From assembly GCA_040754875.1 (NCBI GenBank), contig JBFMBT010000017.1, forward strand, positions 1-36,071: a DNA stretch of 36,071 bases, written 5' to 3'. Of the stretch, positions 16,641 through 31,319 are shown piece after piece (the first letter of the stretch is position 1; each line of letters starts with the position of its first letter). A program made the translations under genes and the position numbers. The DNA comes from Verrucomicrobiota bacterium (GTDB taxonomy: Bacteria; Verrucomicrobiota; Verrucomicrobiia; Limisphaerales; JBFMBT01). The notes under the pieces were generated by a model, which was given only the letters and a program-made list of their open reading frames with translations, had not been told where the DNA came from and made no database searches.

Positions 16641-17413
16641 CGATGAAACGCCGGCCACTCATCCTCATCACGCCCAGCAAACACGCCAAGGGCGCGGAAA
16701 TGGACGACGCCTCCGTGTGTGTCTCCGAGCATTATGCCAACGCTGTGCTGGCCGCGGGCGGGATTCCGCTGATTGTTCCGCGCATGACCGATCCGCAACT
16801 CGTCGCCGAATGCCTGCGCGTTTGCGATGGGCTCCTGCTCACGGGCGGCGATGATGTGAATCCAAAGCTCTACCGTGAAACTCTCTCGCCGGGATTGGAG
16901 AAAACGGTGGAGCTGGCCGACGCGGAGCGCGATTTGCAGGAGTTGATGCTCGTTGATGAAATTTTCCGCCAACGCAAACCATTGCTGGCCATCTGCCGCG
17001 GCCACCAGGTTTTGAATGTGGCATTGGGCGGCGATTTGATTGTGGATATTCCGCAACAGGTTCCGGGTGCGCTGAATCATTCGCGATCTGACCGCCGGTT
17101 TGACCCGGTGCATGATGTGCAGTTGACGGATGACTCGGTCCTCGTCAGTATCGCGGGAAGCAGCGCATTTGGAGTCAATAGTTCTCATCACCAGGCGGTT
17201 GGACGCGCAGCCCGGCCGCTGAAAGTCACGGGAAGGAGCGATGACGGGGTGATCGAGGTACTCGAACTGGCGGATGAAGCCAGGGCGTGGCTGCCATGGC
17301 TGCTTTCGGTGCAAGCACACCCCGAACGATTATTCGACAGGTATCCGGAGCACTTGGAAATATTCCGGAGATTCACCGGGGCCTGTGCAAATGGATTTAA
17401 AGGCGATAAATGA
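16637..17413 (+). CDS. gamma-glutamyl-gamma-aminobutyrate hydrolase family protein (class I glutamine amidotransferase-like, peptidase C26)
   Basis: It carries the catalytic context LLAICRGHQVLNVALGG...SSHHQAV. Confidence 0.85.
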   Translation: MTMKRRPLILITPSKHAKGAEMDDASVCVSEHYANAVLAAGGIPLIVPRMTDPQLVAECLRVCDGLLLTGGDDVNPKLYRETLSPGLEKTVELADAERDLQELMLVDEIFRQRKPLLAICRGHQVLNVALGGDLIVDIPQQVPGALNHSRSDRRFDPVHDVQLTDDSVLVSIAGSSAFGVNSSHHQAVGRAARPLKVTGRSDDGVIEVLELADEARAWLPWLLSVQAHPERLFDRYPEHLEIFRRFTGACANGFKGDK

Positions 17414-18750
17414 GCGCAAAGATACTGGTTGTTGATGACGAGCAAACGGTGCGGGACCTGTTGGTGACCATTCTCAACAAGTCCGGTTACCAGACCAGCG
17501 AAGCCGGCGATGGCGCCAGCTTGCGCGAGTGTTTTGCCGGAACCCAGCCGGACCTCGTGCTGATGGACCTGAAACTGCCTGACGCCGACGGCTTGGAACT
17601 GCTCCCGGCATTGAAAAAGAACTGGCCGGAAACGGAAGTCATCGTGCTGACCGGTTACGCGTCCATTGATGCGGCCGTGATGGCGACGAAACTGGGCGCC
17701 TACGATTTTCAAAAGAAACCGTTCGACACGAAAGGGCTCTTGCTTGCCGTCGAACGTGCGCTCGAACACAAACAGCTTACCGAACAGGCCAGTTCGTTGC
17801 GGCGCGCGTTGTCCACGATCAGCGGCAGCGAGTCGCCGGTGTTTCGCAGCCAGGCGATGAAGGAAATCGTGCGCCAGGTGGAGCGGGTGGCCCCCGCCGA
17901 TGTTCCCGTGTTGATCACTGGCGAGAGCGGCACGGGCAAGGAAGTCATGGCGGATCTGATTCACGCGCTGAGCACGCGCGCCAAGGGCCCGCTGGTGAAG
18001 ATCAATTGCGCCGCGTTGCCGCGTGAATTGATCGAGAGCGAATTGTTTGGCTCGGTCAAAGGCGCGTTTACGGGCGCGCATGCCGACCGGGAAGGATTGT
18101 TCCGCCAGGCCAATGGCGGGACGCTGTTCCTGGACGAGATTTCGGAAATGCCCATTGACACGCAGAGCAAGCTGCTGCGCGTGTTGCAGGAGCAGGTGGT
18201 GCGTCCGGTGGGGGGACGGGAAACTTATAAAACCAATTGCCGCATCGTGGCCGCCACGAACCGTGAGGTCGAGCACGCCATCCGCGACGGCAAATTGCGC
18301 GAGGATCTGTATTATCGCATCAACGCGTTTTCCATCGCTTTGCCGCCGCTGCGGGACCGGCGCGAGGACATCCTTCCGCTGGCGGATGCTTTTCTGAAAC
18401 GCTTTTCCGCGCAGGCCGGACGAGTCATCGCCGGGTTCACAAGCGCCGCCCAACAGCGGTTGCGCACCTTTGATTGGCCGGGAAACGTGCGGCAGTTGCA
18501 AAACGAAGTGCAGCGCGCCGTGCTGCTGTGCGAACAGCGGGAAGTGGACACGAACGACCTTTCCATCAGTTCGAAGGAGCCGGAAGTTGCTGCCGATCCC
18601 AAACTCAGCCTTATCGAGGTCATGGAGCGTAATGCCATCGTGCAAATGCTCAAGGAAACGGGCGGAAACAAGCTTGAAGCCGCCAAGCGCCTTGGCATTG
18701 GACGGCAGACGCTTTACAACAAGCTCAAGGAATACGGGATTCAGACGTAA
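17410..18750 (+). CDS. sigma-54-dependent Fis-family response regulator (NtrC-type: REC + AAA+ sigma-54 activator + HTH)
   Basis: It has a REC domain with an acceptor Asp ([10 protein letters not shown]), Walker A GESGTGKE, a GAFTGA-like activator loop ([10 protein letters not shown]) and a C-terminal Fis-type HTH. The ATGA overlap with the upstream gene suggests coupling. Confidence 0.9.
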
Positions 18751-18875
18751 TCGATTTGCGTTGAAGATTTCCTGTTGTCTTTGGGCGTGAAGGGGGCTTA
18801 AATTGGGCTTACAGCACACCCAACCGAACCCATCATGCAGAGGAAAGCGAATCATTCTGGTGTGACGCGGGCTGC

Positions 18876-18893
18876 CCTTGTCCCGGGACAAGG
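18876..18893. other. 18-bp perfect palindrome ccttgtccc|gggacaagg
   Basis: It lies 126 nt downstream of the ntrC-type gene stop and 58 nt upstream of the CBS gene start. It could be a terminator-like hairpin or an operator. No U-tract follows it. Confidence 0.5.
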
Positions 18894-18950
18894 CGGGAGT
18901 TCCTTTGCCGCTCAATTCCAGCGGGCGTGGGTTCAAATCCTGGAGGTCGT

Positions 18951-19397
18951 ATGCAAGTTTCGGGTCTAGTAGCCAGCATTCTCAGCCAGAAGGGCGGGTC
19001 AGTGTATTCGATTGCGCCGGACGCGATGGTGTATGACGCCATTCAAATGATGGCGGACAAGAACGTTGGCGCATTGCTCGTCATGAAAGATGAGAAATTG
19101 ATGGGTGTGATTTCCGAACGCGATTATACGCGCAAGGTCATTCTCAAGGGCAAGCTTTCCAAACAAACGCCGGTGCAAGAAATTATGACCAGCCCGGTCA
19201 TCACGGTGACGCCGAACCATTCCATTGATGAGTGCATGCGCCTTATCAGCGAGAAGCGCGTGCGGCATTTGCCGGTTGTGGACGGCGAGAAGGTTGTGGG
19301 CGTCGTATCCGTCGGCAATCTGGTGAACTGGATCATTTCGGCGCAAAACGCCACGATCAACCAGTTGCAAAACTACATTTCCGGCGGTTACGCCTGA
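18951..19397 (+). CDS. CBS domain pair protein
   Basis: It contains two CBS motifs (VGALLVMKDEKLMGVISERD, HLPVVDGEKVVGVVSVGNL). ATG at 18951 was chosen as the start. Confidence 0.8.
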   Translation: MQVSGLVASILSQKGGSVYSIAPDAMVYDAIQMMADKNVGALLVMKDEKLMGVISERDYTRKVILKGKLSKQTPVQEIMTSPVITVTPNHSIDECMRLISEKRVRHLPVVDGEKVVGVVSVGNLVNWIISAQNATINQLQNYISGGYA

Positions 19398-20293
19398 GTG
19401 ATGCGCGGCGCTTCGGCCGCTTCGCAATGGCCCGCCATCTCGAGGTAAACGGCCTTTATCTTGTCTTCAAATTCCGTTATGTGCTGGCGCAATTTGCTCC
19501 AGTCGTTTTTGAATTCCCATTTGCTCGGGTCCCACCAGCCGATTTGATTTAGATGATCGGCGGGGAAGGGGAATGGGTGCTGGTGAACGGCTTTTGCGCG
19601 GCCGTTGCTCGAAATCAATTCAGGCGTCCAGGCTTGCGAACGCGCGGACACGAGGCCGTCGCTTGCGTCTTCCTTGCTTTGGAGATACAGCCACGAGCCC
19701 TGCAGGAGCCAGAACACGGAGCCGAATTCCACGGAGCTTGACCAGGTGTGATATTGGACGGCGTTGGTTGCCTCAGTGTCTTGCGCGCGGCGGTTGAAGT
19801 CTGCGCAGGCGGCGGTCGTCAGATCACGAAAGCCTTCGAGATCCAGGTAAGGGCGAATCTTGTCGATGAGCAGTTCGCCGCCGAATTCGAGCGCGACATC
19901 CGCCCAGGTCGTGCCCAGGTGCGGCGTGCCGATGGTCGTCAGGGTGGCGATTTTTTCGCTCATGCCGGGCGCATCCACAATCATGTGGCGGGCGTCCAAC
20001 CCGCCCATGCTGTGGCCGATGATGTGAACCTTGGGTCGTTGCGTGCGCGCCAGAATGGCTTCGACCTGTTCGGTCAATTGACGGGAGCGTTCGGAGATGC
20101 CACCCGCGAAACTCACGCTCGCGTGGTGCACCTCGTAGCCGTTGGCTTCGAGGTGGCTCTTGATGTTCCGGAAGTAATGCCACGAATCGTCCAGTTGCAC
20201 GCCCGCGTTCTGAAGCTTGTCTTGAATCCGCTCGCGCAACAGGTCGAAGCGCGCGATGCCATGGGCGAGCACGATGGGAAAGGTCGTGGGCAT
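19388..20293 (-). CDS. lipase/esterase-like alpha/beta hydrolase (class-2 lipase / DUF676-like), apparently cytoplasmic
   Basis: It has a GHSMGG nucleophile-elbow motif and no signal peptide. The ATG at 20293 lies only 15 nt downstream of the giant-protein stop on the same strand. Confidence 0.8.
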   Translation of the reverse strand: MPTTFPIVLAHGIARFDLLRERIQDKLQNAGVQLDDSWHYFRNIKSHLEANGYEVHHASVSFAGGISERSRQLTEQVEAILARTQRPKVHIIGHSMGGLDARHMIVDAPGMSEKIATLTTIGTPHLGTTWADVALEFGGELLIDKIRPYLDLEGFRDLTTAACADFNRRAQDTEATNAVQYHTWSSSVEFGSVFWLLQGSWLYLQSKEDASDGLVSARSQAWTPELISSNGRAKAVHQHPFPFPADHLNQIGWWDPSKWEFKNDWSKLRQHITEFEDKIKAVYLEMAGHCEAAEAPRITQA

Positions 20294-20308
20294 GGGCGCG
20301 AACGACAG

Positions 20309-23300
20309 TCAGTAGTTTTCCGGTGGCGGGAGGTTGACGTCGCCGCCTTTGACGGCTTTCGCCTTGGCCTGCCATTCGCGCTCGGCCTGGATGATTTCCC
20401 AAATCTTCTTCAACGTGTCGCGCGAGACGGAAGTAATCTGGTAATCGGATTGCTCGCCGGAATCGAGCACGCGCAACGTCGGCTGTTCGCGCTGGAGTTT
20501 CACGTTCTCGGCCAGCGCCGCCTGAATGGAAGCCAGCGTCTGGCCGAAGTGGCCGAGTTGCGAGGCGAGCTGGCCGACCAATTCCTTGTCCAACGCGGGC
20601 GCCGGCGCGGCTTTGCGCGGCGTTTCCTGCTGTTTCACGCCTTCGGCGAGCACACCTTTGATGGATTCCAATCCTTGGGCGAACGCGGCCAACTGGCCGG
20701 TGATTTGTTCGACGGAATCGGTGGTCGGTTTGCGGACGCTGTCCCGCTGGGCCTTCACCGCATCGGTAAGCACCGAACGAATCGAATCAAGCCCTTCGGC
20801 AAACGTGGAAAGCTGCGCGACGACCTGGCCGATCGGGTCCTTTTGATTGACGCCCTGGAACAGCAGGTTGCGCTTGAACGTCTTCTTGATGTCTTCCCAG
20901 CGGGCCGCGTCGCTCTCGGTCATCCAGCCTTGTAGTTCGCGGAATTTGAGGAGGTTGGCTTCGGCGCCGGTCGTGAGCGTCTGCGATTCGTTTTTGTAGT
21001 GGTCGGCGATGACGAGCTTCACTTCCTCCTCGTTCATCACGGGCAGAATCTTTTCTGCCATGCGATTCATGTTGCGGTAGGAGCCTTGTAATTTGAACGG
21101 CGGCTCGGTGCGATATGCCTCCGCCTGCGCCGCCGAGCGGATGTATTCGAGATTCACGCGCAGGACCGTGTCGCGGATGCGGAACAGCCACTTCATCACG
21201 GCGACCATCTCGGTGGTTTCCTCGGCGGAGTAATTGCCCTCGAATTCGACGCCGTCGCGCGTGCCGGTCTCGGCAATCTTCACAATCGCGTAAACATCCT
21301 TCTGGCTGCGGCTGCTCAGGCGGTTGAGCACCGGATTGGACGTCAGCGTGTTTTCCAGATAGCTCAACTTGAACGCCTCGTCCGCTCCGCCGACGATGTC
21401 GCCGAGGTTGTAGGTGTCGGCGCGATTGGCGAGCATGTCGGGGATCTTGAATTTCTCGCCGCTCTCGGTGTACGGATTGCCGGCCATGACCACGCACACC
21501 TTCTTGCCGCGCAAATCGTAAGTCTTCGCGCGCCCCTTATAGACGCCTTCGATCTTCCGCTGCGCATCGCACAACGAGATGAACTTCTGCAAGAACTCGG
21601 GATTCAAATGCTGGATGTCGTCCAGGCAGATCATCACGTTGTCGCCCATTTCGAACGCGAGATTGAGCTTCTCGATTTCCTCGCGCGCGCTGGCGTTGGG
21701 CGCTTCGCCGGGGTCGAGCGATGTCACCTCGTGCCCGATGGCCGGGCCGTTGATCTTCATGAAGATGATGCCCAGCCGGTTGGCGATGTATTCCATCAGC
21801 GTTGTCTTGCCGTAGCCGGGTGGGGAAACGAGCAGCAGCATGCCCATGCGATCCGTGCGTGTGGCTTCGCCGGCGACGCCGAGTTGCTTGGCGAGATTGC
21901 TGCCGACCATGGGGAGGTAAACGGAGTCAATGAGCCGGTTGCGCACGAACGACGTGAGGACACGCGGACGGAACTCGTCCAACCGCATGTCCTGGCGCAT
22001 GGCTTCCACCAGCGCCGCCTTGTGCCGATGATATTTTTCGAACAGCGGCATCACGTCGCGTTCATGGCGCGTGAGCTTGTGCATGAAGGCGTTGTAGTTC
22101 AGCGAACAGGTCTGGTCCTTGAGCGCCGGATGCGAACCCATCATGCCGGCAATCTGCGTGGCGACTTCCGCGTCCACCACGGCCCGCGGATCGGGTGTGC
22201 CGCGCAACAAGACGGCCATGGCTTCGTCCAGATATTCGGCGTCCAGCGGGCTTTCGGCCGTGGGCAGAAAGGCCGACACCCAGTCGCGAATCAAATGGCA
22301 GGTCGCACGAACATTGCTTTCGAGCGCGTGCTTCGCTTCTTCGAACCGCTTGGTGACATGCTTGGTGCGCAGGAACAGCGTGAAGGCATGGCAGATGTCC
22401 GCCGCCTTGCGGCTGATGACGAGCGTCGCGTTGCTGGTAAGGTCGTGGAACAGGTATTCCGCCGCTTCGTCGGCGAGATCGACAGGGAACAGGCCGGTCT
22501 GCGCGCAGAAATCGCGGATGAGCTGCTCCAGTTCGCGGATGTGGGCGGCTTCGGCGCGGTGCGTGGGAAACAGTTCGCGCCGCACGCGCATGCCCGCGAG
22601 TTTGGCGGCCAGGATCGGGTCCTTCCTTTCGTGCTCGTGCCAGAAGGCGGCGGCACAGGCGCGCGCGTGGGTGTGGTAGCGCAACAGGCCGATGGTGGAA
22701 TGCAGCCGCAGCAACTCGCGCAGAATCTTCGCGCCGTCGAGATCGTGAATCCCCTTGATGTAGCCTTCGGAATAACGCGGCGCCATGAACTCCTGCACGA
22801 ACGCCAGCAACGCCGCGTCATCCAACGCCGTCACGTCCGCCAGGTTCCGGTCCAGTTCGCGCGCATCGAGCGCCTTCAGGATGCGATACGCCAGGTACTC
22901 GGCGCGATACACGGTGTCCGTCTCCGACACGACCTCCTGGTTCCAGGCGGGGCGGGTGGCATCCAGTTCCTGGTCGGCGATTTTCTCGAAGAAGTTCGTG
23001 CCGGTAAGATGATAATACATCTCGCCGTCGCGCAGCACCGTGGTCAGCTCCAGCGGCTGCGTGTTGACCGTGAACTTGTGCTGGCCGAGCTGGATGATGT
23101 TCTTGCCATCGACGAACAGCTCCTGGCGGTCCTTGAGCTGGCGGACCGCGTCTTCGCGAATCGTCTTGAGCCGGCTCTGGATGTCGCCGGACTTGACGGT
23201 GTCCTTCAGGTCGATCAGTTGCTGGACGACGTTCCGCACTTTTTCCACCATGAGATCGGAGGCGAAGTAGCCGTTGATCTCGTTGATGGACTGCATGCCA

Positions 23301-25663
23301 TCGATGCGGTTCTTGATGCCCTTGAGGATGCGGTCCGCCGAGGCCATCAACGCCGTGGCCTTTTTGTTGCGCGCCTCGACCAGACCCAGCTTGCGGTTCT
23401 CGAACGCGGTGTAGAGTTCTTCGCGCTTCTCGGTGAGCTGAAGGACGAATTCGTCGAAATCTGCGAACCGCGCCTCCAGTTCCTCGACGTGCACCATGAC
23501 CTTGGTCAGGTATTCGTCGCAGCGCTCCGGGCTGTCGCAAATCTCGAGGTAATTGGTGACGCTCTGGTCGAGCAGGCGCATCTGCGAACTGAACTGCGCC
23601 TCGCCTTCGCCCTTGGCCAGTTCCTGGCGGCGACGCTTGAGGGCGGCCTTGATCTGATTGAGCGGGGCGTAAATCGCCGAGATGCCATCGATGATGCGCG
23701 TGGTCTGCGTGGAATCCTCGATCTTCAGGTTGCTGACGATCTCGATCAGCATTTCGAGTTCCTTGCCCGTGTTGGCGATGGCTTCGTCCAGCGCCTTGGC
23801 CTCGGTGACCTTGGCCAGCGCGCCGACGGCGTTTTCGTGTTCCTTGACCTTCTTCTGATACGGTTCCAGCGCCTCGGGCTTAAGGAGGAATTCGACGCAC
23901 AATTTGGAAAGCTGCTCGGTGTGCTCGGCGACATTCTTTTCCAGCGCCTCGACCGCCGGCAAATCCACGTAGCGCAATTCCTTCAGCGAAATGATTTCAC
24001 CCCGCACGGCGCGCAAGCCGGCGAGTTGCGTGACGAAATGGCCGATTTCCTGCAACGCCGAGTAATCGATGCCCGTGGTGAGCCGGGTGGCCGTTTCGGT
24101 GACGCGTTTGACCTCGGCCTGGGTGTTGCGGCGGATGCGAATGACCTTTTCGAATTCATCAATTGCGCTGGAAGCCGCGGTCTTGATAGCCAGCAACGTG
24201 CTCTTGAGATCGAACGCCTCCTTGTTATCGAGCCAGAAATAGGAGTCGATGATGGTCGTCGTGACCTTGACGATATCGACGTACAGGCCGGCGAAGGTGT
24301 CCTGCTTGCCCAGCAGCGTCAGCAGGCTCTGGCACTCGGCCATGCAACCGACGATGGAGGGGTTGCCGATTTTGTAGAGGAACGAATCTTTGCGCGTGGG
24401 CAGGGAGACGTTGTGGTCGAGGAACGGCGTCTGCCAGATTTGAATCGAGTGATGTTTCTGCGGCTCATCAGTGGCTTTGAAAAACGCCATTTCGCCGTTC
24501 TCGAACAGGGAGAATCCATTGCAGACGATGGGCGATTCGACTTTTTGCGCGATGAGGTTGTAGGGCATCAGCACGTAAGTGCCCGACGGTTTGTTGTAGA
24601 AGACGTAGAGGAAATCCTCGCCGTTGGGCGAGGTGATGCGCCGCTCGTACGTCATGTTCGACAGTTCGGTGGGGAACTGTTTGAACTCGCCGAGTTGCAG
24701 GTAATAGCCGCTCGAGAAAATGATGCCCTGGTCGTCCGGCAGCAACACGCACGAGTCCGCGAGGGCGTCGATGCGCCGCACTTCCTTCAGCTTCTCGTTG
24801 AAAACGAAGTAACGGAAATTGGGTTCCTGATACGGACGGATCTTCAGCAGAATCAGGTTGCCGACGATGGCGTAAAATATTTCCGCGTCATCGAGCGTCT
24901 GGTCCTTGTGCTCGACCGGCTCGGAGTAGATGCCTTCGCCGGACTTGGTGTTGTCCTCGACCTTGATGGTCAGGTCGCCTTGGATGGTTTCGACGAAGAC
25001 GCGGTCCGCAATCGAGATGTGCGGGTGCAGGCCGTGGCGATGCAGTTCGCGGTGGGTGCGGATCCATTCGAACTCGTGCTGCGGGGGATACTTCAGTTCG
25101 TGGTCGCTGCGGTTGCCCTGGTAAAGCAACTCGCCGTCCTTCATGAGCCACTTGAACGTCTTGAAATCATCGACGCTCTGGCCTACGCGAAACTTCATGA
25201 ACAGGTGCGGGCCGATCACCATGAGTTTCGCGAAGAACGTGTTCTTGTAATATTTGTAGAGCTGACGGAAGTCGTTCAGGAAGGTCTCGTCGCTGATGAG
25301 ATCCAGCGGCAGTTGCGTGAAGGTGTGGTCCTTGTGCTCGTAAACGGCGAAGACATCGGCCAGTTGCGTCTCGGTCTTCAGGCCGATGAACACGTTGTAG
25401 CCAAACAGGAACCGGCCCTGGCCCACGGAAACCATGTCGCGCGGGACACAGTTGTTGTTCGTGGTGATGTGCTCGGTGGCAACCAGCGCGGTGGGGATGG
25501 AACCGAAGACCTCCTGGCGCGCGGCGTTGAGTTGCGCGAGGCGCGCGCGCAGTTCGGCGCCGCTGGCATCCAGGCGCTTGCGGATGACCTCGTAGGTGCC
25601 GCCCTCGAGCTGGACCTGCGGCTCCTGCGCGGGCTTCGGCGGTTCTGTGGGTTGGTCAGCCAT
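20309..25663 (-). CDS. giant (1784 aa) protein with one AAA_5/MoxR-like ATPase module, coiled-coil regions and C-terminal tandem repeats; function unknown
   Basis: Walker A is LLLVSPPGYGKTT and Walker B is VMICLDDIQ. A sensor/second region GNPYTESGEKFKIPDMLANRADTYNL near residues 1270-1450 resembles dynein-related AAA_5/MoxR modules. A long helical heptad-rich stretch spans residues about 560-900. Three roughly 35-aa C-terminal repeats are present. Confidence 0.85.
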   Translation of the reverse strand: MADQPTEPPKPAQEPQVQLEGGTYEVIRKRLDASGAELRARLAQLNAARQEVFGSIPTALVATEHITTNNNCVPRDMVSVGQGRFLFGYNVFIGLKTETQLADVFAVYEHKDHTFTQLPLDLISDETFLNDFRQLYKYYKNTFFAKLMVIGPHLFMKFRVGQSVDDFKTFKWLMKDGELLYQGNRSDHELKYPPQHEFEWIRTHRELHRHGLHPHISIADRVFVETIQGDLTIKVEDNTKSGEGIYSEPVEHKDQTLDDAEIFYAIVGNLILLKIRPYQEPNFRYFVFNEKLKEVRRIDALADSCVLLPDDQGIIFSSGYYLQLGEFKQFPTELSNMTYERRITSPNGEDFLYVFYNKPSGTYVLMPYNLIAQKVESPIVCNGFSLFENGEMAFFKATDEPQKHHSIQIWQTPFLDHNVSLPTRKDSFLYKIGNPSIVGCMAECQSLLTLLGKQDTFAGLYVDIVKVTTTIIDSYFWLDNKEAFDLKSTLLAIKTAASSAIDEFEKVIRIRRNTQAEVKRVTETATRLTTGIDYSALQEIGHFVTQLAGLRAVRGEIISLKELRYVDLPAVEALEKNVAEHTEQLSKLCVEFLLKPEALEPYQKKVKEHENAVGALAKVTEAKALDEAIANTGKELEMLIEIVSNLKIEDSTQTTRIIDGISAIYAPLNQIKAALKRRRQELAKGEGEAQFSSQMRLLDQSVTNYLEICDSPERCDEYLTKVMVHVEELEARFADFDEFVLQLTEKREELYTAFENRKLGLVEARNKKATALMASADRILKGIKNRIDGMQSINEINGYFASDLMVEKVRNVVQQLIDLKDTVKSGDIQSRLKTIREDAVRQLKDRQELFVDGKNIIQLGQHKFTVNTQPLELTTVLRDGEMYYHLTGTNFFEKIADQELDATRPAWNQEVVSETDTVYRAEYLAYRILKALDARELDRNLADVTALDDAALLAFVQEFMAPRYSEGYIKGIHDLDGAKILRELLRLHSTIGLLRYHTHARACAAAFWHEHERKDPILAAKLAGMRVRRELFPTHRAEAAHIRELEQLIRDFCAQTGLFPVDLADEAAEYLFHDLTSNATLVISRKAADICHAFTLFLRTKHVTKRFEEAKHALESNVRATCHLIRDWVSAFLPTAESPLDAEYLDEAMAVLLRGTPDPRAVVDAEVATQIAGMMGSHPALKDQTCSLNYNAFMHKLTRHERDVMPLFEKYHRHKAALVEAMRQDMRLDEFRPRVLTSFVRNRLIDSVYLPMVGSNLAKQLGVAGEATRTDRMGMLLLVSPPGYGKTTLMEYIANRLGIIFMKINGPAIGHEVTSLDPGEAPNASAREEIEKLNLAFEMGDNVMICLDDIQHLNPEFLQKFISLCDAQRKIEGVYKGRAKTYDLRGKKVCVVMAGNPYTESGEKFKIPDMLANRADTYNLGDIVGGADEAFKLSYLENTLTSNPVLNRLSSRSQKDVYAIVKIAETGTRDGVEFEGNYSAEETTEMVAVMKWLFRIRDTVLRVNLEYIRSAAQAEAYRTEPPFKLQGSYRNMNRMAEKILPVMNEEEVKLVIADHYKNESQTLTTGAEANLLKFRELQGWMTESDAARWEDIKKTFKRNLLFQGVNQKDPIGQVVAQLSTFAEGLDSIRSVLTDAVKAQRDSVRKPTTDSVEQITGQLAAFAQGLESIKGVLAEGVKQQETPRKAAPAPALDKELVGQLASQLGHFGQTLASIQAALAENVKLQREQPTLRVLDSGEQSDYQITSVSRDTLKKIWEIIQAEREWQAKAKAVKGGDVNLPPPENY

Positions 25664-25744
25664 GGAGGATTAAAGCCTCAATTCCCAACCGGCAAACTTC
25701 AAAGAAGCATCAAGCATGAAGCTCCCAAGGATAGGCGCGCCGGC

Positions 25745-27796
25745 TTACGCCTTGCGGTCGCCGAGGGCGTTGACCTTCTTCTCGTGCAAGCCGAGCCGTT
25801 GAGCCAGCGCCAGCATGCGCTGGAGCGTGCCCTTGGTTTCGCCGTCGTCGGCCAGCGTGATCATCTGGCTCAAGGCGGCGGCGACCGTCAGGTTCTTGAC
25901 GTCCTCGGAGGTCAGGCCGAACTGCGAGGTGAAGCCCTTCAACTGCGTCCGGAAATATTCCGGGTCGGAATTGAAGAACGTATCCTTCACGGTGGTCAGC
26001 GTGTCGCTGTTGGCGACCATGCGGTCCACTGCCTTGCCGGCGGTGATGGCGCCGACAATCTTGTCGAAGAACTGCGTCTCGCCGCCCACGATATCGACCT
26101 TGGCGGTCTTGAGCGCCTCGCTGACGACCTGCGCCTGGCTGCTGGCGATGTCCTTCTGGACATTGATCATGGCCAGTTCGACATCCTTCTCCTTGTTCAA
26201 GCGCAGCTTGAATTCCTCGTGCTCGCGGCCGACGCCGTCGAAGATCTTCATCGCTTCGGCCTTCTCGGTGATGCCCTTGGCCTCCGCGCCGTACTTGAGT
26301 TCCATGACCTTGGCTTCGGCGGAACCTTGCTTCTCGACCGCGTTGGCTTTGGCTTCGAGCACCTGGACTTCGCCCAAACCCGGGGCGGCGGTTTCCTTGG
26401 TAACGGCTTCGGCCAGCAATTTCTTGGCCGTGGCTTCGCGTTCGGCCGCTTCCTGGTGCGCCTCAGCCTGAATGATGGTTTCCTGTGCCTTGATCTCGGC
26501 GGCCTTGCGTGAGGCTTCGGCCGCCTTGACCACGCGGATCATGTCCTCGTCCGCCTTGAGTTCGGCGGCGCGCTTGGAGGCTTCGGCCGTTTTCGTTTCT
26601 TTGATGAGAATCTCTTCGCCTTCCATGGTCGCCTTGGTAACGACGACCTGCTTTGTGCGGTCCGCCGCCGCAAAAGCCTCGGTGTCCTTGATGCGCTCTT
26701 TCTCGGCGACGACGGCCTTCTCCACCATCACACGCTCGCGGATGACATCCTGAATCTTCTTTTGCTCCACTTCGATGGCGCGCTGCTTCTCGATGTCCGC
26801 CAGCGTCACCACGCGTTCGCGTTCGGTGACCTCCAAAAGGCGATCTTTCTCGACGCGCTCGGTTTCCACCGCATTAGTGCGCTCCTTGTTCTTTTGCGCC
26901 ACGATGATCTGGCGGTTTTTGTTTTCCTCGGCGATGGCGATTTCCTCGTCCGCCGCGATGCGGGCCTGTTCGCCCTTGAGTTTCATCTCCTGCTCGACCT
27001 TCTTGGCCTCGGCGTGTTCGCGCGCGGTGAGGGTGGCAATCTCGCGCTTCTGCTTCTCGGTGGCCTCGGCGAGCTGACGGTTCAATTCGAGAATCTTTTC
27101 CTTCGCTTCGACGTCCTGCGCAGTGATGACCTTTTCCTTGTCGCGTGCAATACTGTTGGCCAGTTTGGCCTGAGCCGCGGTTAACTCGGTGATCTTTTTG
27201 ATGCCCTCGGAGTCCAAAATGTTGTTGGGGTTCATGTACTCGAGGCTGGTCTGCTCCAGATAATCAATGGCGGCGTCATCGAGCACATAGCCGTTCAAGT
27301 CCGTGCCGATGCTCTTGAGAATCTGGTCGCGAAATTGCTCGCGTGAGTTGTACAGCTCCACGAAATCAAACTGTCGGCCCACAGTCTTCAACGCTTCCGA
27401 AAATTTCGCGTCGAACAACTCGGAAATGGCCTTCTGGTCGGAGGCGCGCGTGCAACCCACGGTGGTAGCCACCTTGACCACGTCATCCTCGGTTTTGTTC
27501 ACGCGCACAAAGAACGCCACGCTGATGTCCGCGCGCATGTTGTCTTTGCAGATGAGACCGGCGGCGCCGCGCCGGTCGATCTCGATGCGGTGGACCGAGA
27601 TGTTCATGAATTCCACCTTGTGCAGGACGGGGATGACGATCATGCCCGAGAACGAGACTTTGGTCCCGCCCGCACCGTTGCGCACCAGCGCCCATCCTTG
27701 ATCGACCTTTCGGTAACAGCGCAAAATCATGGCGATGAAACCGATCCCAATGATCAAGCCGACAAACATCAGCACCGCAACTATCGCTCCACTCAT
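25745..27796 (-). CDS. flotillin-family SPFH protein (YqiK/FloT-like) with an extended E/K/A-rich coiled-coil region
   Basis: It has an N-terminal TM segment followed by an SPFH domain (VRNGAGGTKVSFSGMIVIPVLHKVEFMNISVHRIEID...). The long EA-rich flotillin repeats bring it to 683 aa, longer than typical YqiK-like proteins. Confidence 0.9.
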   Translation of the reverse strand: MSGAIVAVLMFVGLIIGIGFIAMILRCYRKVDQGWALVRNGAGGTKVSFSGMIVIPVLHKVEFMNISVHRIEIDRRGAAGLICKDNMRADISVAFFVRVNKTEDDVVKVATTVGCTRASDQKAISELFDAKFSEALKTVGRQFDFVELYNSREQFRDQILKSIGTDLNGYVLDDAAIDYLEQTSLEYMNPNNILDSEGIKKITELTAAQAKLANSIARDKEKVITAQDVEAKEKILELNRQLAEATEKQKREIATLTAREHAEAKKVEQEMKLKGEQARIAADEEIAIAEENKNRQIIVAQKNKERTNAVETERVEKDRLLEVTERERVVTLADIEKQRAIEVEQKKIQDVIRERVMVEKAVVAEKERIKDTEAFAAADRTKQVVVTKATMEGEEILIKETKTAEASKRAAELKADEDMIRVVKAAEASRKAAEIKAQETIIQAEAHQEAAEREATAKKLLAEAVTKETAAPGLGEVQVLEAKANAVEKQGSAEAKVMELKYGAEAKGITEKAEAMKIFDGVGREHEEFKLRLNKEKDVELAMINVQKDIASSQAQVVSEALKTAKVDIVGGETQFFDKIVGAITAGKAVDRMVANSDTLTTVKDTFFNSDPEYFRTQLKGFTSQFGLTSEDVKNLTVAAALSQMITLADDGETKGTLQRMLALAQRLGLHEKKVNALGDRKA

Positions 27797-27798
27797 AT

Positions 27799-28512
27799 TT
27801 ATTCCTCGATTATAGGTTCTTCGTATCGGACAACTTTGAACAGGCCCTTCTCGCGATCCTGTTCGATGACCAACGCCTTGTCGCCGCGCTTGAGCACGGC
27901 GTCTCCCGTTGTGCGCACCTGGATGGTCAACGGCACCCCCTTGTGTTCCAGCGACGCCTGGCCAAAACCCGTCGTCACTTCACCGGTCAGTACCTTGACC
28001 ACCTGGCCGACAATCTGGATTTTTTCGTCAAAATCCTGGTCGAGTTTCCGGAAGATCTTGCGGAACGGATACGTCAGCACGCGGGTGAGCAACACGCAGA
28101 CGATCAGGTTCGGCACGAGCAAAACCAGCCCGCGAACCAAACCGTAGTTGGGATTGAGGTAGTGGTTGGCCAGAATGGAGAACGCCCAACCGCACAAGAC
28201 TAATATGCTCAGGATGATGGTTACCGGCAGTTCGCCGACATGGAGGAAAGTGAGGAAGGCGTTCAAAATCCCGCCGTGCCCGTGGGTGTGGGAATCACTG
28301 TCACCATCGGCGTGCGCGTCTCCGTCGGCATGGACGTCGCCATCCGCATGCAAATCCGCGTGCCCATCCAGGTGAACATCCATGCCCGAATCCATGGAGT
28401 CGAGGTGAACGAGGCCGGAAGCGACCATCAGCCAGTACAGCACCATCAACACCACCAACAAAGTAAAAGGCAGGTTGATCGGCTGGATGGCGGCATGGAA
28501 CAGTTCTAGCAT
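27799..28512 (-). CDS. YqiJ/NfeD-like membrane protein (short NfeD with a C-terminal OB-fold) with a His/Asp-rich (HADGD)x3 loop
   Basis: Its stop lies 2 nt before the flotillin start. It has TM helices and a C-terminal beta-rich NfeD-like domain (VGQVVKVLTGEV...GVPLTIQVRT...DKALVIEQD). The arrangement mirrors E. coli yqiJ-yqiK and B. subtilis yuaF-floT. Confidence 0.75.
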   Translation of the reverse strand: MLELFHAAIQPINLPFTLLVVLMVLYWLMVASGLVHLDSMDSGMDVHLDGHADLHADGDVHADGDAHADGDSDSHTHGHGGILNAFLTFLHVGELPVTIILSILVLCGWAFSILANHYLNPNYGLVRGLVLLVPNLIVCVLLTRVLTYPFRKIFRKLDQDFDEKIQIVGQVVKVLTGEVTTGFGQASLEHKGVPLTIQVRTTGDAVLKRGDKALVIEQDREKGLFKVVRYEEPIIEE

Positions 28513-28640
28513 GACGGCTCAACCCTTTGCTTGTTCACGGCGACAAACGGTGAAGGCTTCCTCGGCCTTCACGTCCCACCCCAACCGGCTGTGGGAGCAA
28601 CTCTACGCCTTCCACCAGACCACACGTGCGAGCGGATGTC

Positions 28641-28666
28641 TTTTATAAAAACCCACCCCGATTATA
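28641..28666 (-). promoter_or_regulatory. AT-rich island with a TATAAT (-10-like, minus strand) and a palindromic TTTTATAAAA element upstream of the yqiJ-flotillin-giant operon
   Basis: It is the only AT-rich patch in the 216-nt intergenic region 28513-28728. TATAAT on the minus strand corresponds to attata at 28661-28666. The -35 element is weak. Confidence 0.3.
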
Positions 28667-28728
28667 AAGCAAGCGCCGAACGTAGTGAGCAGCAAAAGAT
28701 TTCACGGACTTCCGGGTGTTTGGCCGTC

Positions 28729-29649
28729 TCATTGAGCGCCTTCCCGTTTACTTTTCGTCTTTAATGCCTCTTCAATCTTCAGCACCGCATTGCGAAGTTC
28801 GACCCGAACCTCGGGTTGGGGGTCACGCAAGGCATCCCGGATAAGCGGAAGGGCGGATTCTCCGTATTCACCCAAGTTTCCAATTAGGAAAGCGACTTGC
28901 TGACGGGCGTAACCGTTCACGTCTTTCAACTCAAACACCAGGACGCGCGCCATTTGCTCCGATGGCATTCCACGTGGCAGGACGCGCAAGGTGTCGCGTG
29001 CTGTTGCTCGGAGACGCGGTTCAATGCCGTCGTCATACGCGAGGGCTATTAATTCCCGCATCAAGTCAGGGGGAAGGTAGGTTTGTTGCAGACAGATTCC
29101 AGCGCAAACGTTCACGGAATTGTTGGTATTGGCGAAAGCGTGAATCAAGACCGCCAGGCCTTCAGGGCCTGCATGAGCCAGACTCTGCGCCAATTCCAGC
29201 CGACCGCGCACCCAAGGACTTGGATCATTCAGCCGTTTTGCCAAAACGGGAACGGCCGACTTTGCGAGGGGACCAAGCGCTTGACAGGCAATCGCCGCTC
29301 GCGTGCTTCGCAATTCTGCCGGTGGATACTTCAACGGGAGCCATGTTTGGCGGTTGCTCCACGAGATAATTGGCCGCAGCCAGGGAGAATCCGTTGCTGC
29401 GAGTTCCTTCATTACCGCCGGGAGGGCGTTGGTGCCGATTAACTGGATGGCTTCCATGGCCCTGCCTCGAGTGGCGGGCTCGTCAAGGTCCGCAAGCCAT
29501 TCTTGCAAAGACCGGCCATCATGGCTTGGTTTGCTTGACGACAAAAACGGAATCGCCAGTGCGCATCCAGCGAGAAGAATACACGCGAGGATTCGAATGC
29601 GCTTTGGCTGCCTAGTGCTTCTGGTTACGGGAACGGAATCGTTGCTCAA
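28729..29649 (-). CDS. membrane-anchored HEAT/armadillo-like repeat protein
   Basis: It has an N-terminal signal-anchor (ILACILLAGCALAIPFL) followed by repeated helical-pair motifs with conserved L/A/P. The start appears to be TTG, overlapping the upstream AAA gene stop by 4 nt. Confidence 0.65.
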   Translation of the reverse strand: MSNDSVPVTRSTRQPKRIRILACILLAGCALAIPFLSSSKPSHDGRSLQEWLADLDEPATRGRAMEAIQLIGTNALPAVMKELAATDSPWLRPIISWSNRQTWLPLKYPPAELRSTRAAIACQALGPLAKSAVPVLAKRLNDPSPWVRGRLELAQSLAHAGPEGLAVLIHAFANTNNSVNVCAGICLQQTYLPPDLMRELIALAYDDGIEPRLRATARDTLRVLPRGMPSEQMARVLVFELKDVNGYARQQVAFLIGNLGEYGESALPLIRDALRDPQPEVRVELRNAVLKIEEALKTKSKREGAQ

Positions 29650-31319
29650 ATTGCCTTTTTCCGTCGGAACATTTCCGGCACGAAATCCTTGTCGCTGGCC
29701 TCGCTGACCGCCAGTTCAATCTGGAACTCCATGATTTCGCGCGCGACGGGGCTTTGGTACGTGGCCAGCGCCTGTCCCAGGGCCTCGCGCGGCGCGACAC
29801 CCTGCGTCTTGATGGTGCGATACAATTTGATGGAGAGCGCCTCCGCCGCGCCCGGCGTCATCAACGTCGGAATCAGCGGATGCACGGCGTCAAAGTCCTC
29901 CGGGGTAAACACCAGGCCCAGCCGTTTGCTCAACGCCTTGATGAGGTCAAAACTCTCCTGCGTCGTCGTCGTCGGGAAAATGGGAATCTTCACATCCACG
30001 CGACCGGGGCGTTTCAAATCCACCTCAATCAAGTCCGGCCGGCTCGACGCGAGAATCCAGATGATTTTGCCCCGGTTGTCCGGGTTGCTCATCTCCTTGG
30101 CGAACATGGAATAGACGCGGCCGGACAAACCGCCGTCGTTCGAGCCAGAATCCCGTTTGCCCAAGGCCTGGTCGGCTTCGTCGATGAAGACGAAACAGCG
30201 CCCCAGGCTTTGCAGCAGTCGGAAAATCTTCTCCAGATTGCCTTCGGTGCTGCCCACCCATTTGTCGCGGAAATTCTTGATCTTCACCACGGGCACGCCG
30301 GCTTCGCCCGCAAGGCATTCCACCATGAACGTCTTGCCCGTGCCCACCGGGCCGCAAATGAGGTAACCCATCGGCATGGCCTTGAGGTCGCCCTGCCGCC
30401 AGAGCGCGATGTCCTGCCGCAGCCAGGTCTTCAACTTGTCCTGCGCGTGCAGGAAATCGAGGTTGCGCCTGGACTCGATGAACTCGATGAGGTCGTTGCA
30501 TTCCTTTTCCACCAGCGCCTTCTTCAGCACCACCAAATCATCGTGTTCGAGCGGATCCTTCTCGTATTCCTTCATCTTCAACAGGCTCTCGGACGCCGTC
30601 AGCGAGGTGCCGGCGAGCAGCGCGGCGAGTTGATCGATCTGGCCGTCAAACTTTTTGAGCGCGACGGGATACGAGCCTTTCACCAGCTCCAACGCCGGTT
30701 TCAATTCCGCCGCGGTGGGCAGGGGAATCTTGATTTCCGCCGCGCGCGGGTTGTTGCTCAGCAGGGGATGCAGGTCGTTGATGTTGTCCGCCAGCAGGCA
30801 CGTCACGAGCGGAAAGCCGGTGAACACGTTGTCCGACGACCAGTCGCGGATGAGCGTGGCCAGCGCGTTCAAATCGAAGTGAAACGAACCGGGCATCGCG
30901 GGCGCCACGAGGTCCGCGCCGCGAATCCAGCAGCCGATTTGCAGCGGGCGCTTGCCAAGCCGGCTCAGGTTCGCGCAGTAACGGAAATAATGCGTCAACG
31001 TCTCGATGGCGGCGCGGGGTTCGCGCGGCAGTTCCTTTTCCTTGTAGGACGGCCATTGCGTGAAAACTTCGCCGCCCTTCTCGATGCGGATGCCGTTGCC
31101 GAGGTCGTAGCTGATGACCACGTCAAACCGCGGCATCAGAACCTTGAGCAGAAAATCTGTGAGGCTCCCAACCGACGCCTCGGCGCCCGCCGGCAGGATG
31201 AAGCGGTCATGGATGTTTCCGTACAGGACGAACTGGCTGGCGGCGTGGCTTTGGTAGAGGGAGATGACCTCGTTGGCCCAAGCCGGCAGCGCGGGTGGTT
31301 TGGTGTCCTTCGGTTGCAT
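29646..31319 (-). CDS. classic-clade AAA ATPase (FtsH/Vps4/CDC48-like AAA module) with an uncharacterised roughly 330-aa N-terminal domain and no protease domain
   Basis: Walker A is ICGPVGTGKTF, Walker B is CFVFIDEADQ, and a second region of homology with arginine fingers is present (ASSRPDLIEVDLKRPGRVD). ATG at 31319 was chosen as the start, with an AAGAAGGGG SD-like element 6 nt upstream. The ORF track gives an alternative start at 31466. Confidence 0.8.
   Translation of the reverse strand: MQPKDTKPPALPAWANEVISLYQSHAASQFVLYGNIHDRFILPAGAEASVGSLTDFLLKVLMPRFDVVISYDLGNGIRIEKGGEVFTQWPSYKEKELPREPRAAIETLTHYFRYCANLSRLGKRPLQIGCWIRGADLVAPAMPGSFHFDLNALATLIRDWSSDNVFTGFPLVTCLLADNINDLHPLLSNNPRAAEIKIPLPTAAELKPALELVKGSYPVALKKFDGQIDQLAALLAGTSLTASESLLKMKEYEKDPLEHDDLVVLKKALVEKECNDLIEFIESRRNLDFLHAQDKLKTWLRQDIALWRQGDLKAMPMGYLICGPVGTGKTFMVECLAGEAGVPVVKIKNFRDKWVGSTEGNLEKIFRLLQSLGRCFVFIDEADQALGKRDSGSNDGGLSGRVYSMFAKEMSNPDNRGKIIWILASSRPDLIEVDLKRPGRVDVKIPIFPTTTTQESFDLIKALSKRLGLVFTPEDFDAVHPLIPTLMTPGAAEALSIKLYRTIKTQGVAPREALGQALATYQSPVAREIMEFQIELAVSEASDKDFVPEMFRRKKAI

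Follow-up and report, generated by a model that had tools for sequence, protein, structure and literature searches.

A PspA-less, abbreviated version of the PspA-associated flotillin operon, with a YqiJ/NfeD-like protein, a long flotillin and a giant ATPase, in a Verrucomicrobiota contig

Introduction

PspA, a membrane-repair protein, is the bacterial ESCRT-III, and SPFH proteins form cages that enclose or organise their partners, as in HflK/C-FtsH and in the 26-mer of QmcA (PDB 8z5g). In both HflK/C-FtsH and prohibitin-m-AAA, an SPFH protein is coupled genetically to an AAA+ ATPase. The yqiJK pair of E. coli and the yuaF-floT pair of B. subtilis each have an NfeD-like gene immediately upstream of a flotillin gene on the same strand; the genes after the E. 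coli pair are small, unrelated toxin/sRNA genes, and an ATPase gene is missing there. In B. subtilis, the recruitment of PspA to the membrane requires an SPFH protein (PMC8581546).

Using comparative genomics, Ravi et al. (2024, mSystems 9:e00847-23, PMC11237479) described a triad of a YqiJ/NfeD-like protein, a flotillin and a giant ATPase within PspA-associated operons. Their type example of such a flotillin operon surrounds ANH61663.1 in Dokdonia donghaensis, 'abbreviated operons' without CesT/Tir-PspA are widespread, and some proteobacterial versions contain a gene encoding phospholipase D, a lipid hydrolase (PMC11237479). The same study reported a dyad of PspA and an 'inactive classical AAA + classical AAA' ATPase (AEY64320.1/AEY64321.1) in Clostridium sp. 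BNL1100 (PMC11237479, Text S2.2). Here we compare with these systems a locus of six genes in a stretch of 36,071 nucleotides from a Verrucomicrobiota contig (the window).

Results

All six minus-strand ORFs of the original prediction were present at the coordinates in Table 1, and its spacings were reproduced when recomputed from the ORF coordinates. The AAA and HEAT genes overlap by 4 nt, which presupposes a TTG start for the HEAT gene, and the AAA ORF stays open to 31466, beyond the chosen ATG. The gaps are 216 nt between the HEAT gene and yqiJ, 2 nt between yqiJ and the flotillin gene, 81 nt between the flotillin and giant genes, and 15 nt from the giant's stop codon to the start of the hydrolase gene.

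Table 1. Features of the six-gene locus, in window coordinates.
Feature	Position	Strand	Remarks
AAA+ ATPase gene	29646..31319	-	557 aa from the ATG picked in the original prediction; neighbouring module outside the conserved triad
HEAT-repeat protein gene	28729..29649	-	306 aa; Pfam HEAT_2, E 2e-13
Imperfect inverted repeat TTTATAAT-N11-TTTATAAA	28642..28669	-	candidate promoter/operator of the triad
YqiJ/YuaF (NfeD-like) multi-pass membrane protein gene	27799..28512	-	237 aa; first triad gene
Long YqiK-type flotillin gene	25745..27796	-	683 aa; second triad gene
Giant ATPase gene	20309..25663	-	1784 aa; third triad gene; annotated 'DNA repair ATPase'
DUF3686 domain of giant (residues 37-476)	24236..25555	-	PF12458, E 3e-182, full-length match
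DUF7902 domain of giant (residues 597-681)	23621..23875	-	PF25472, E 6e-28
Single AAA+ module of giant (residues ~1270-1470)	21254..21856	-	
C-terminal repeat tail of giant	20489..20842	-	from translation and family consensus
Lipase-family alpha/beta hydrolase gene	19388..20293	-	301 aa; Pfam Abhydrolase_1/PGAP1/DUF676/lipase

Among the six genes, only those encoding the YqiJ/NfeD-like protein, the long flotillin and the giant ATPase form a conserved unit. Of the 65 species-level genomes in which enough upstream DNA was available, from at least seven phyla, 62 had the flotillin gene immediately before the giant gene, while three (L009, L024 and L055) had the giant gene without an upstream flotillin. 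Synteny of the triad spans Verrucomicrobiota, Planctomycetota, Bacteroidota, Desulfobacterota, Kiritimatiellota, Omnitrophota and Clostridia. In the reverse test, seeded with flotillin, all 12 metagenome loci had a giant gene after the flotillin gene, and tblastn found YqiJ homologues upstream of flotillin in 51 of the 62 genome loci. The proposed tight linkage between the YqiJ/NfeD-flotillin pair and the giant ATPase was thus upheld, and the independence of the giant from flotillin, named in the original prediction as the finding that would speak against it, was not borne out.

The YqiJ-like protein has an acidic loop rich in His and Asp, and its C-terminal domain is beta-rich. It matched Pfam YqiJ_N at 24.1 bits (cut-off 23), its sole PDB match was B. 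subtilis YuaF (weak), and hhalign aligned the profile of its 18-member family with E. coli YqiJ over 180 columns (probability 96.7%, E 3e-10). The flotillin is 130 residues longer than that of the yqiJK-type pair and escapes the Pfam Band_7/Flot models; indeed, it had no sequence match in Pfam, NCBIfam or the PDB. The profile of 27 flotillin homologues nevertheless aligned with E. coli YqiK over 375 columns (probability 99.9%, E 3e-37), and database sources label it flotillin or YqiK. In the AF2 model, which has low confidence in the SPFH part, the flotillin is built from an N-terminal membrane helix, the SPFH region, a continuous helix of about 350 residues and a C-terminal helical domain.

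The giant ATPase has more than 6000 homologues across phyla, 55-66% identical over 91-100% of the length, and at least 583 matches in species-representative genomes; over ~1700 residues, its identity across phyla is 50-66%. Its DUF7902 domain falls inside a long helical/coiled-coil middle. The single AAA+ module matched AAA, AAA_5 and RuvB_N in Pfam, all weakly, and has the Walker A motif SPPGYGKTT and the Walker B motif LDDIQH, in which Asp-Asp is invariant across the family. Because this Walker B has Asp-Asp instead of Asp-Glu, the ATPase rate of the giant is uncertain. Structure comparison upheld the earlier AAA_5 assignment: the best matches were MoxR-class ATPases (CbbQ of CbbQ-CbbO, NorQ of NorQ-NorD, and RavA-ViaA) and the AAA_5 proteins midasin and dynein, with CbbQ, NorQ, midasin and dynein the nearest. 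The giant shares with them a beta-hairpin before the sensor-1 strand, which in the giant ends in MAGNP, and the pattern 'NP..E.G....P....R' after sensor 1. Unlike the MoxR class, however, it has one AAA+ module within 1784 residues that also hold a putative propeller and coiled coils, its Walker B is Asp-Asp, and sequence likeness to that class is confined to the P-loop. MoxR-class ATPases usually act with a VWA partner; no VWA/MIDAS partner for the giant was present. The C-terminal tail has three copies of a repeat of ~35-45 residues (GQ..QL..F..GL.SI...L), of which the first copy alone is conserved among homologues. The whole architecture agrees with that of the 'beta-propeller + coiled-coil + AAA-ATPase' protein in Table S3 of Ravi et al. 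(2024), and the description of DUF3686 as beta-propeller repeats comes from that paper (PMC11237479).

The AAA protein has a classical-clade C-terminal domain (PF00004, E 6e-25) with the pore loop KWVG and an N-domain of about 300 residues, and its PDB matches were the D2 domains of VAT, Cdc48 and AFG2 (E 2e-33). Its homologues across phyla are 63-74% identical. In all five homologues looked up, the PspA gene was the immediate upstream neighbour or, in L087, separated by one gene; the usual companion of this family is PspA, and not flotillin as the original prediction would have it. The AAA gene adjoins the triad only in the window and in the close relative L089/L090, where L089 has the order PspA-AAA-YqiJ-flotillin-giant, and it was absent beside the giant gene in 80 of 80 genome loci, save for one distant generic match. 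PspA itself was found in 21 of the 80 genome loci, no more than ~10 kb from the giant gene. There it nearly always flanks the triad, on the upstream side in most loci and on the downstream side in L011, L059, L016 and L033. In three close relatives it immediately precedes the triad, and none was found in the 36-kb window. In 16 Bacteroidota loci, the order is a divergent HTH-S24 regulator, CesT_Tir, PspA, YqiJ, flotillin and giant.

The original prediction had taken the six genes as one system, and this did not survive the comparison, in which the HEAT and hydrolase genes were missing from every related locus examined. No tblastn match for the HEAT gene was found in about 100-110 related loci, and in L089, the closest relative, the AAA gene is followed directly by yqiJ. 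The HEAT gene is an insertion specific to this lineage, separating the AAA gene from the triad. Since its product starts with a signal or lipoprotein-like segment (ILLAGC, with the lipobox read from the translation only), the HEAT protein is probably not cytoplasmic. The hydrolase has a GHSMGG nucleophile elbow and no signal peptide, and matched family I lipases of Pseudomonas and Burkholderia in the PDB (E 4e-16). The same 100-110 or so loci all lack it, a metagenome scan for its relatives found none, and PADLOC gave no match. The hydrolase is a lineage-specific, cytoplasmic, lipase-like addition after the giant gene.

The AT-rich patch noticed earlier in the 216-nt gap is real and overlaps a non-coding block that is conserved in relatives. 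The block holds the inverted repeat of Table 1, which begins 157 nt before the start codon of yqiJ and is followed by ~35 conserved bases, and it aligns in the window, L082, L089, L094, L095 and L096 irrespective of the upstream gene. The motif alone is found at equal distance in L084, L098 and L108 as well. RNAalifold on the leader gave no supported structure, and simple scans for sigma-70 promoters and terminators yielded nothing of use. The block is a candidate promoter or operator of the triad, and because it is the same between HEAT and yqiJ here and between AAA and yqiJ in L089, it speaks for the triad being transcribed as a unit of its own.

Discussion

The arrangement was originally thought not to be described, but the triad, with or without CesT/Tir-PspA, is already in Ravi et al. 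(2024; PMC11237479). The locus is a real and ordinary member of this known system, in the abbreviated, PspA-less form of the operon. The order in Dokdonia is the order found in the 16 Bacteroidota loci, and, judging from matching architecture and these loci and not from direct sequence comparison, the giant likely belongs to the same family as the Dokdonia ATPase. In contrast to the published operon, the window has no CesT/Tir, PspA or HTH-S24 regulator, contains upstream a putative tandem-AAA ATPase of the PspA type and a lipoprotein-like HEAT protein, and has downstream a family I lipase homologue and not phospholipase D. The triad also differs from E. coli yqiJK in that its flotillin nearly always precedes the giant. 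The AAA protein is like AEY64320.1 of the Clostridium dyad by architecture and context: it has a classical C-terminal AAA domain, a similar-size N-domain without Walker A (a putative dead AAA copy, statistically unconfirmed) and homologues beside PspA. However, the window has no PspA, and the order in our loci is PspA then AAA, whereas it is AAA then PspA in Clostridium. The literature searched contained no experimental study of any member, and the functional reading below is drawn from gene context and fold.

That all six genes encode a single integrated membrane quality-control complex, with the AAA protein, a HEAT scaffold, the flotillin cage, the giant and the hydrolase, is quite unlikely. 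The six genes are on the same strand with short gaps, the AAA gene again stands beside yqiJ-flotillin-giant in L089/L090, the closest relative contigs, linkage to PspA is seen for the AAA family and, separately, for the triad, and the proteobacterial phospholipase D (PMC11237479) is a loose parallel to the lipase. But the HEAT and hydrolase genes have no counterpart even where the flotillin is 75-78% identical, the AAA gene is as good as absent from the 80 genome loci, the conserved block parts HEAT from yqiJ, and the HEAT protein carries a signal or lipoprotein-like N-terminus. As to the name 'DNA repair ATPase', under which the flotillin linkage would be incidental, the source annotation, the Pfam description of DUF3686, weak RuvB matches in the P-loop region only and the LexA-like HTH-S24 regulator at Bacteroidota loci speak for it; we consider it highly improbable.

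Another reading is that the triad is an anti-phage or abortive-infection sensor of membrane perturbation with a variable downstream effector, here the lipase. PspA was first discovered as a phage-induced protein, and the divergent HTH-S24 regulator of the Bacteroidota versions is CI/LexA-like. The gene 3-13 nt after the giant differs in each of the closest relatives and looks defence-like: an AbiU/AIPR protein in L095 (PADLOC E 8e-34), HEPN_RiboL-PSP in L096, and, 8 nt downstream, a weak Pycsar-cyclase-like match in L094 (E 1e-6). In other genomes, small nuclease ORFs (DUF559, PDDEXK_3, Uma2) also lie within the operon or next to it. On the other hand, in about half of the loci no gene is tightly linked downstream, other downstream genes include DFP, metallophosphoesterase, AI-2E transporter, OmpH and PspA, and the defence-like genes may be stand-alone cargo in a variable spot. 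The core genes matched only mad8 and IetA in PADLOC (E ~1e-3, P-loop only), so the defence island suggested earlier found no support there, nor from the window hydrolase, and such cross-phylum conservation with stable synteny is unusual in immune sensors. The identity of the giant across phyla suggests a machine of housekeeping type and not an arms-race gene. An immune role thus appears unlikely.

We consider it fairly probable that the conserved operon is an abbreviated PspA-flotillin form in which a flotillin/NfeD cage and the giant remodel flotillin/PspA polymers in membrane stress. The general idea of the original prediction, a machine that remodels membrane microdomains, fits the recurrent linkage to PspA. 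Flotillin with its NfeD partner would build a cage or cup at the cytoplasmic face of the inner membrane, and the giant, a soluble ATPase that probably forms a ring, would dock on this cage through its propeller and coiled-coil parts. With ATP use like that of MoxR/midasin, it would assemble, reshape or strip polymers of flotillin and/or PspA when the membrane is under stress or being repaired. HflK/C-FtsH and prohibitin-m-AAA are an analogy only, as the giant, unlike their ATPases, has no transmembrane segment, no protease domain and another AAA+ clade. The lipase may act on membrane lipid, and the classical AAA neighbour may act on PspA polymers in the manner of Vps4. In this verrucomicrobial lineage, the AAA module has lost its PspA neighbour, and the lineage-specific, lipoprotein-like HEAT protein is now next to it.

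Gene order and conservation of the triad

The original prediction had joined six consecutive minus-strand genes into one candidate flotillin-centred system, and all six ORFs are present in the window where it had placed them (table below). Calculated from the coordinates, the AAA gene runs 4 nt into the HEAT gene if the latter begins at its TTG, and the gaps that follow are 216 nt between the HEAT and yqiJ genes, 2 nt between yqiJ and the flotillin gene, 81 nt between the flotillin and giant ATPase genes and 15 nt between the giant ATPase and hydrolase genes. The neighbour of the AAA gene on its upstream side is deoC, encoded on the opposite strand. The name that the source gives to the giant ATPase identifies the contig as a Verrucomicrobiota MAG. 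A long antisense ORF opposite the giant ATPase gene also spans the gap between giant ATPase and flotillin; with thousands of full-length homologues known for the minus-strand products, it can almost certainly be put down as a shadow ORF in GC-rich coding sequence.

Coordinates of features in the window and in related loci (L-numbers denote related loci in other genomes or metagenomes)
Feature	Locus	Position (strand)	Remark
AAA protein, 557 aa	Window	29646-31319 (-)
HEAT protein	Window	28729-29649 (-)
Imperfect inverted repeat, then about 35 conserved bases	Window	28642-28669	In the 216-nt gap
YqiJ-like protein	Window	27799-28512 (-)	Triad
Long flotillin	Window	25745-27796 (-)	Triad
Giant ATPase, 1784 aa	Window	20309-25663 (-)	Triad
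C-terminal tail repeat of giant ATPase	Window	20489-20842 (-)	Three copies
Hydrolase	Window	19388-20293 (-)
Antisense ORF, 1634 codons	Window	21608-26512 (+)	Shadow ORF, almost certainly
Sigma-54-dependent response regulator	Window	17410-18750 (+)	Receiver, Sigma54_activat, HTH_8
Interval between response regulator and hydrolase	Window	18751-19387	About 640 nt
TTG ORF, 142 codons	Window	18999-19427 (-)	Gene candidate
Spermine/spermidine synthase-like protein, 525 aa	Window	4933-6510 (-)
AbiU/AIPR-like protein after giant ATPase	L095	17849-19684	PADLOC E 8e-34
HEPN_RiboL-PSP after giant ATPase	L096	11717-12616
Pycsar-type cyclase after giant ATPase	L094	17820-18740	Weak
Small nuclease-family ORFs (DUF559, PDDEXK_3, Uma2) in or beside operon	L027	9392-9949
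	L032	9528-9947
	L055	5921-6508
	L084	16140-16742
MoxR-DUF58-DUF4129 cluster	L082	11048-15233	Also in L083
PspA after giant ATPase	L011	6790-7476
	L059	4766-5446
Four-gene cluster starting with DUF4178	L017	14995-19104	Also in L028, L075, L080

Species-representative genomes were scanned with the giant ATPase, which returned at least 583 confirmed matches, and 80 loci were kept with 10-kb flanks and probed by tblastn with the six window proteins. The phyla among these genome loci include Bacteroidota, Kiritimatiellota, Omnitrophota and Clostridia. Among the 65 loci with at least 3 kb of upstream DNA, 62 had the long flotillin directly upstream of the giant ATPase gene on the same strand, the exceptions being L009, L024 and L055, and a YqiJ-like gene was detectable in 51 of the 62. 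In the reverse direction, 14 metagenome loci were seeded with the flotillin, and the giant ATPase gene came next in all 12 that extend downstream. The gene-neighbourhood check proposed for giant ATPase and flotillin thus found a conserved linkage, and it extends to the YqiJ-like gene. The six genes as a whole, however, are not one conserved system: the HEAT protein and the hydrolase had no tblastn match in any related locus, and the AAA protein had a single distant generic match among the 80 genome loci, 6 kb downstream of the giant ATPase gene's end in L070.

Small ORFs between flotillin and giant ATPase were considered as extra subunits and ruled out, as they encode DUF559, PDDEXK_3 or unknown products that differ between genomes. 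In several genomes, nuclease-family ORFs of this kind (DUF559, PDDEXK_3, Uma2) sit between the two genes or next to the operon and look like selfish elements. In L082 and L083, from the relative with the most similar giant ATPase (66%), a MoxR-DUF58-DUF4129 cluster on the other strand follows closely downstream and is probably unrelated.

Relation to the published PspA-associated operons

ORF clustering of the 80 loci revealed an extended operon in Bacteroidota, consisting of a divergent HTH and S24 peptidase regulator, a CesT_Tir/YbjN-like protein, PspA/IM30, YqiJ, flotillin and the giant ATPase. The same neighbourhood has been given for ANH61663.1 of Dokdonia donghaensis (Ravi et al. 2024, PMC11237479), and the arrangement appeared in a 2020 preprint before the mSystems paper of 2024. 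The triad, believed undescribed at the outset, was therefore already known from comparative genomics; what the window offers is a clean instance of it with local additions rather than a new system. The giant ATPase matches the AAA+ architecture of the published flotillin operon (Table S3 of that paper: beta-propeller and coiled coil, the propeller assignment being the paper's) and likewise stands directly after flotillin. In contrast to the full published form, the window lacks the CesT/Tir-PspA dyad, which places it in the class of 'abbreviated operons' that are reported to be widespread (PMC11237479); neither turned up in the 36-kb window in a tblastn search that used five PspA proteins and one CesT protein as queries. 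A literature search found no experimental work on the triad operon.

Some proteobacterial versions carry a phospholipase D (PMC11237479). Two loci of the Phycisphaerae type have PspA after the giant ATPase and not ahead of the triad. In four Bacteroidota loci the giant ATPase is followed by a four-gene cluster, of which the first gene, DUF4178, was identified in L017; DUF4178 is part of another PspA-linked operon type (PMC11237479), and the four L017 proteins had no tblastn match in the window.

The flotillin and YqiJ-like proteins

As a single sequence, the long flotillin matched no Pfam family (Band_7 and Flot included), NCBIfam family or PDB sequence at any threshold. A profile of 27 homologues, when aligned with E. 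coli YqiK by hhalign, gave a probability of 99.9% (E 3e-37, 33% identity, 375 columns), and the alignment takes in the membrane anchor and the SPFH region. Against the PDB, the profile returned a weak coiled-coil match to QmcA only. The homologues are labelled flotillin or YqiK by the source databases, and none of the 120 listed (P0121-P0240) has a precomputed Pfam domain. It appears that the Band_7 and Flot models have a gap, so that this long-flotillin subfamily is missed by Pfam and NCBIfam. An AF2 model built with the 27 close homologues had a pLDDT of 61, with the SPFH part below 50, and was too poor for a fold search.

The YqiJ-like protein scores just over the Pfam YqiJ_N cut-off. Its single sequence matches E. 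coli YqiJ weakly, and with a profile of 18 family members the match extends over almost the entire length (96.7%, E 3e-10); in the PDB it has one match, a weak one to the B. subtilis YuaF soluble domain. With these profile matches to YqiK and YqiJ, the identification of the pair as YqiJ/NfeD and flotillin stands. Like the established modules yqiJK and yuaF-floT, the window combines an anchored, YqiK-homologous flotillin with a YqiJ/YuaF-type gene directly upstream on the same strand.

The motor of the giant ATPase

The giant ATPase contains DUF3686 (E 3e-182), DUF7902 and one low-scoring AAA module according to Pfam. It has more than 6000 homologues, the best 120 of which share 55-66% identity across 91-100% of the length and span Verrucomicrobiota, Planctomycetota, Desulfobacterota, Binatia, Sumerlaeota and Acidobacteriota. 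The family, with 1700-1900 residues, keeps 50-66% identity from Clostridia to Verrucomicrobiota. One of the homologues, P0104 (EukProt g33011.t1), comes from a eukaryotic proteome set and is 58% identical over 92% of the length, which could be explained by contamination or gene transfer.

Sequence methods detected only the P-loop of the motor. In an AF2 model of residues 1180-1640 (pLDDT 74), a beta-hairpin is placed ahead of the sensor-1 strand, and the closest structures are modules of MoxR, midasin and dynein. The model therefore bears out the earlier AAA_5 call, and the motor is MoxR/midasin-like. Unlike typical members of the MoxR/AAA_5 clade, the giant ATPase has no VWA/MIDAS partner among the six window products or the conserved neighbours. 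The name 'DNA repair ATPase' is probably mistaken, because nothing stands behind it but the Pfam/NCBI annotation and weak matches of the P-loop region to RuvB. The window also differs from the HflK/C-FtsH type in that a membrane-anchored AAA protease is not matched: neither window ATPase has a peptidase domain, and no obvious hydrophobic N-terminal anchor was seen in the translation of either.

The C-terminal tail carries an amphipathic-looking repeat (GQ..QL..F..GL.SI), of which the first copy alone is conserved across the family and the remaining tail is variable. Some Desulfobacterales giant ATPases (P0052, P0093) have extra N-terminal ankyrin repeats by precomputed Pfam Ank families, which points to the N-terminal end as the site of partner binding.

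The AAA and HEAT genes

The 557-aa AAA protein matches Pfam AAA (PF00004, E 6e-25) and belongs to a family with 63-74% identity across several phyla. Its C-terminal domain, with the Walker A motif GPVGTGKT and the pore loop KWVG, matches the D2 domains of VAT, Cdc48 and AFG2 (E 2e-33). To look for a degenerate AAA copy in the N-domain, the N-terminal half of 40 homologues was aligned with the C-terminal half by hhalign, at a probability of 0.2%; by eye, the stretch that aligns resembles the region of sensor 1 and the arginine finger, and FVLYGNIHDRF occupies the place expected for Walker A. PspA and a protein with inactive and active classical AAA domains form a dyad in Ravi et al. (PMC11237479). 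The window protein has an active classical-clade C-terminal domain as in this dyad, but the adjacent PspA is missing, whereas PspA lies directly upstream of the AAA gene, or one gene away (L087), for all five homologues looked up elsewhere, a context that fits the dyad.

On the closest relative contig (L089), the order is PspA, AAA, YqiJ, flotillin and giant ATPase with no HEAT gene, and two other close relatives have PspA, YqiJ, flotillin and giant ATPase. Because L089 has the AAA gene beside the triad and L096 (a fourth relative) and L082 have neither AAA nor PspA genes, the adjacency of AAA gene and triad is real but clade-specific: two modules, each linked to PspA elsewhere, are joined in this verrucomicrobial clade. 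The HEAT protein matches Pfam HEAT_2, and its gene is a local insertion; the N-terminus resembles a signal or lipoprotein peptide.

The downstream gene and the possible functions of the triad

In Pfam, the hydrolase falls into several families of alpha/beta hydrolases and lipases; it is homologous to bacterial lipases of family I (E 4e-16) and has no signal peptide. A metagenome scan for relatives found none. The hydrolase is not a conserved component of the system, because the gene after the giant ATPase varies among relatives and phyla. In the closest relatives of the window, a gene that starts 3-13 nt after the giant ATPase gene is different each time and has a defence-like look (L094, L095 and L096 in the table), and L082 has nothing there. 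Across phyla, the position is taken by PspA, the DUF4178 cluster, DFP, a metallophosphoesterase, an AI-2E transporter, OmpH or no linked gene. A 'variable effector slot' as a general rule was rejected, since a linked downstream gene is missing in about half of the loci and differs in kind among the others; we retain it as an observation at the level of the clade, where the defence-like genes could mark a spot for variable cargo or serve as an output arm.

It is these genes in the nearest relatives that keep alive a role of the triad in defence, which the original prediction had offered as an alternative in the form of a defence island. The core proteins, however, match no system described in PADLOC-DB 2.0. 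The flotillin, YqiJ-like, HEAT and hydrolase proteins had no match in that database; the giant ATPase matched mad8 and IetA alone, on the P-loop (E about 1e-3), and the 557-aa AAA protein matched IetA (E 1e-10) via the generic AAA domain with no IetS partner. We thus assign a defence role of the triad a low probability and favor a function at the membrane. Gene linkage, homology and motor clade are shown by the analysis; beyond them, our mechanism is drawn from established SPFH and PspA biology and from the action of MoxR and midasin proteins. We propose that flotillin and its NfeD partner would build a membrane-bound cage, that the giant ATPase would dock via its propeller and coiled-coil parts, and that under membrane stress it would draw on ATP to build up, reshape or strip polymers of flotillin and/or PspA. 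Since a 2025 review holds that a Vps4-like ATPase appears to be absent in bacteria (PMC7619361), the PspA-linked ATPases are putative candidates for such a role. A bolder and rather improbable extension would have both ATPases work on a single flotillin/PspA membrane assembly, the AAA protein as a Vps4-like unfoldase for the ESCRT-III-type polymer and the giant ATPase as a midasin-like remodeller for the flotillin cage, with the variable downstream gene as an output arm for damaged membrane or infection. If true, this would be a bacterial membrane-repair machine with the dedicated motors that bacteria appear to lack according to the same review (PMC7619361).

Regardless, the triad is among the most conserved uncharacterised operons of such size that we have met, and it connects the biology of flotillin and PspA/ESCRT-III in bacteria with motors driven by ATP; ATPase control of these scaffolds is a question still posed in current reviews. 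The MoxR/midasin-like motor, the doubtful 'DNA repair ATPase' label and the flotillin subfamily apparently missed by Pfam and NCBIfam may be useful at the bench.

The block upstream of yqiJ and other genes of the window

The inverted-repeat block aligns in six loci with different upstream genes (HEAT, AAA, PspA or Zincin_1), and the motif by itself is found at the same distance in three more. We read the block as a candidate promoter/operator of the triad, and the AAA and HEAT genes would therefore form a separate unit. RNAalifold gave no supported structure in the yqiJ leader (-0.6 kcal/mol, three pairs), the sigma-70 and terminator scans were uninformative, and a sigma-54 promoter in the 216-nt gap was rejected by eye for its unfit spacing.

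Convergent with the hydrolase gene is the gene of a sigma-54-dependent response regulator; PspF of the classical Psp system is a sigma-54 activator too. The interval between the two genes has no confident gene, and its sole candidate is a TTG ORF with no Pfam match. Rfam and tRNA scans found nothing. Elsewhere in the window, a 525-aa protein has a spermine/spermidine synthase-like domain in its C-terminal half, and proteins of this type have been linked to PspA operons by Ravi et al. (PMC11237479).
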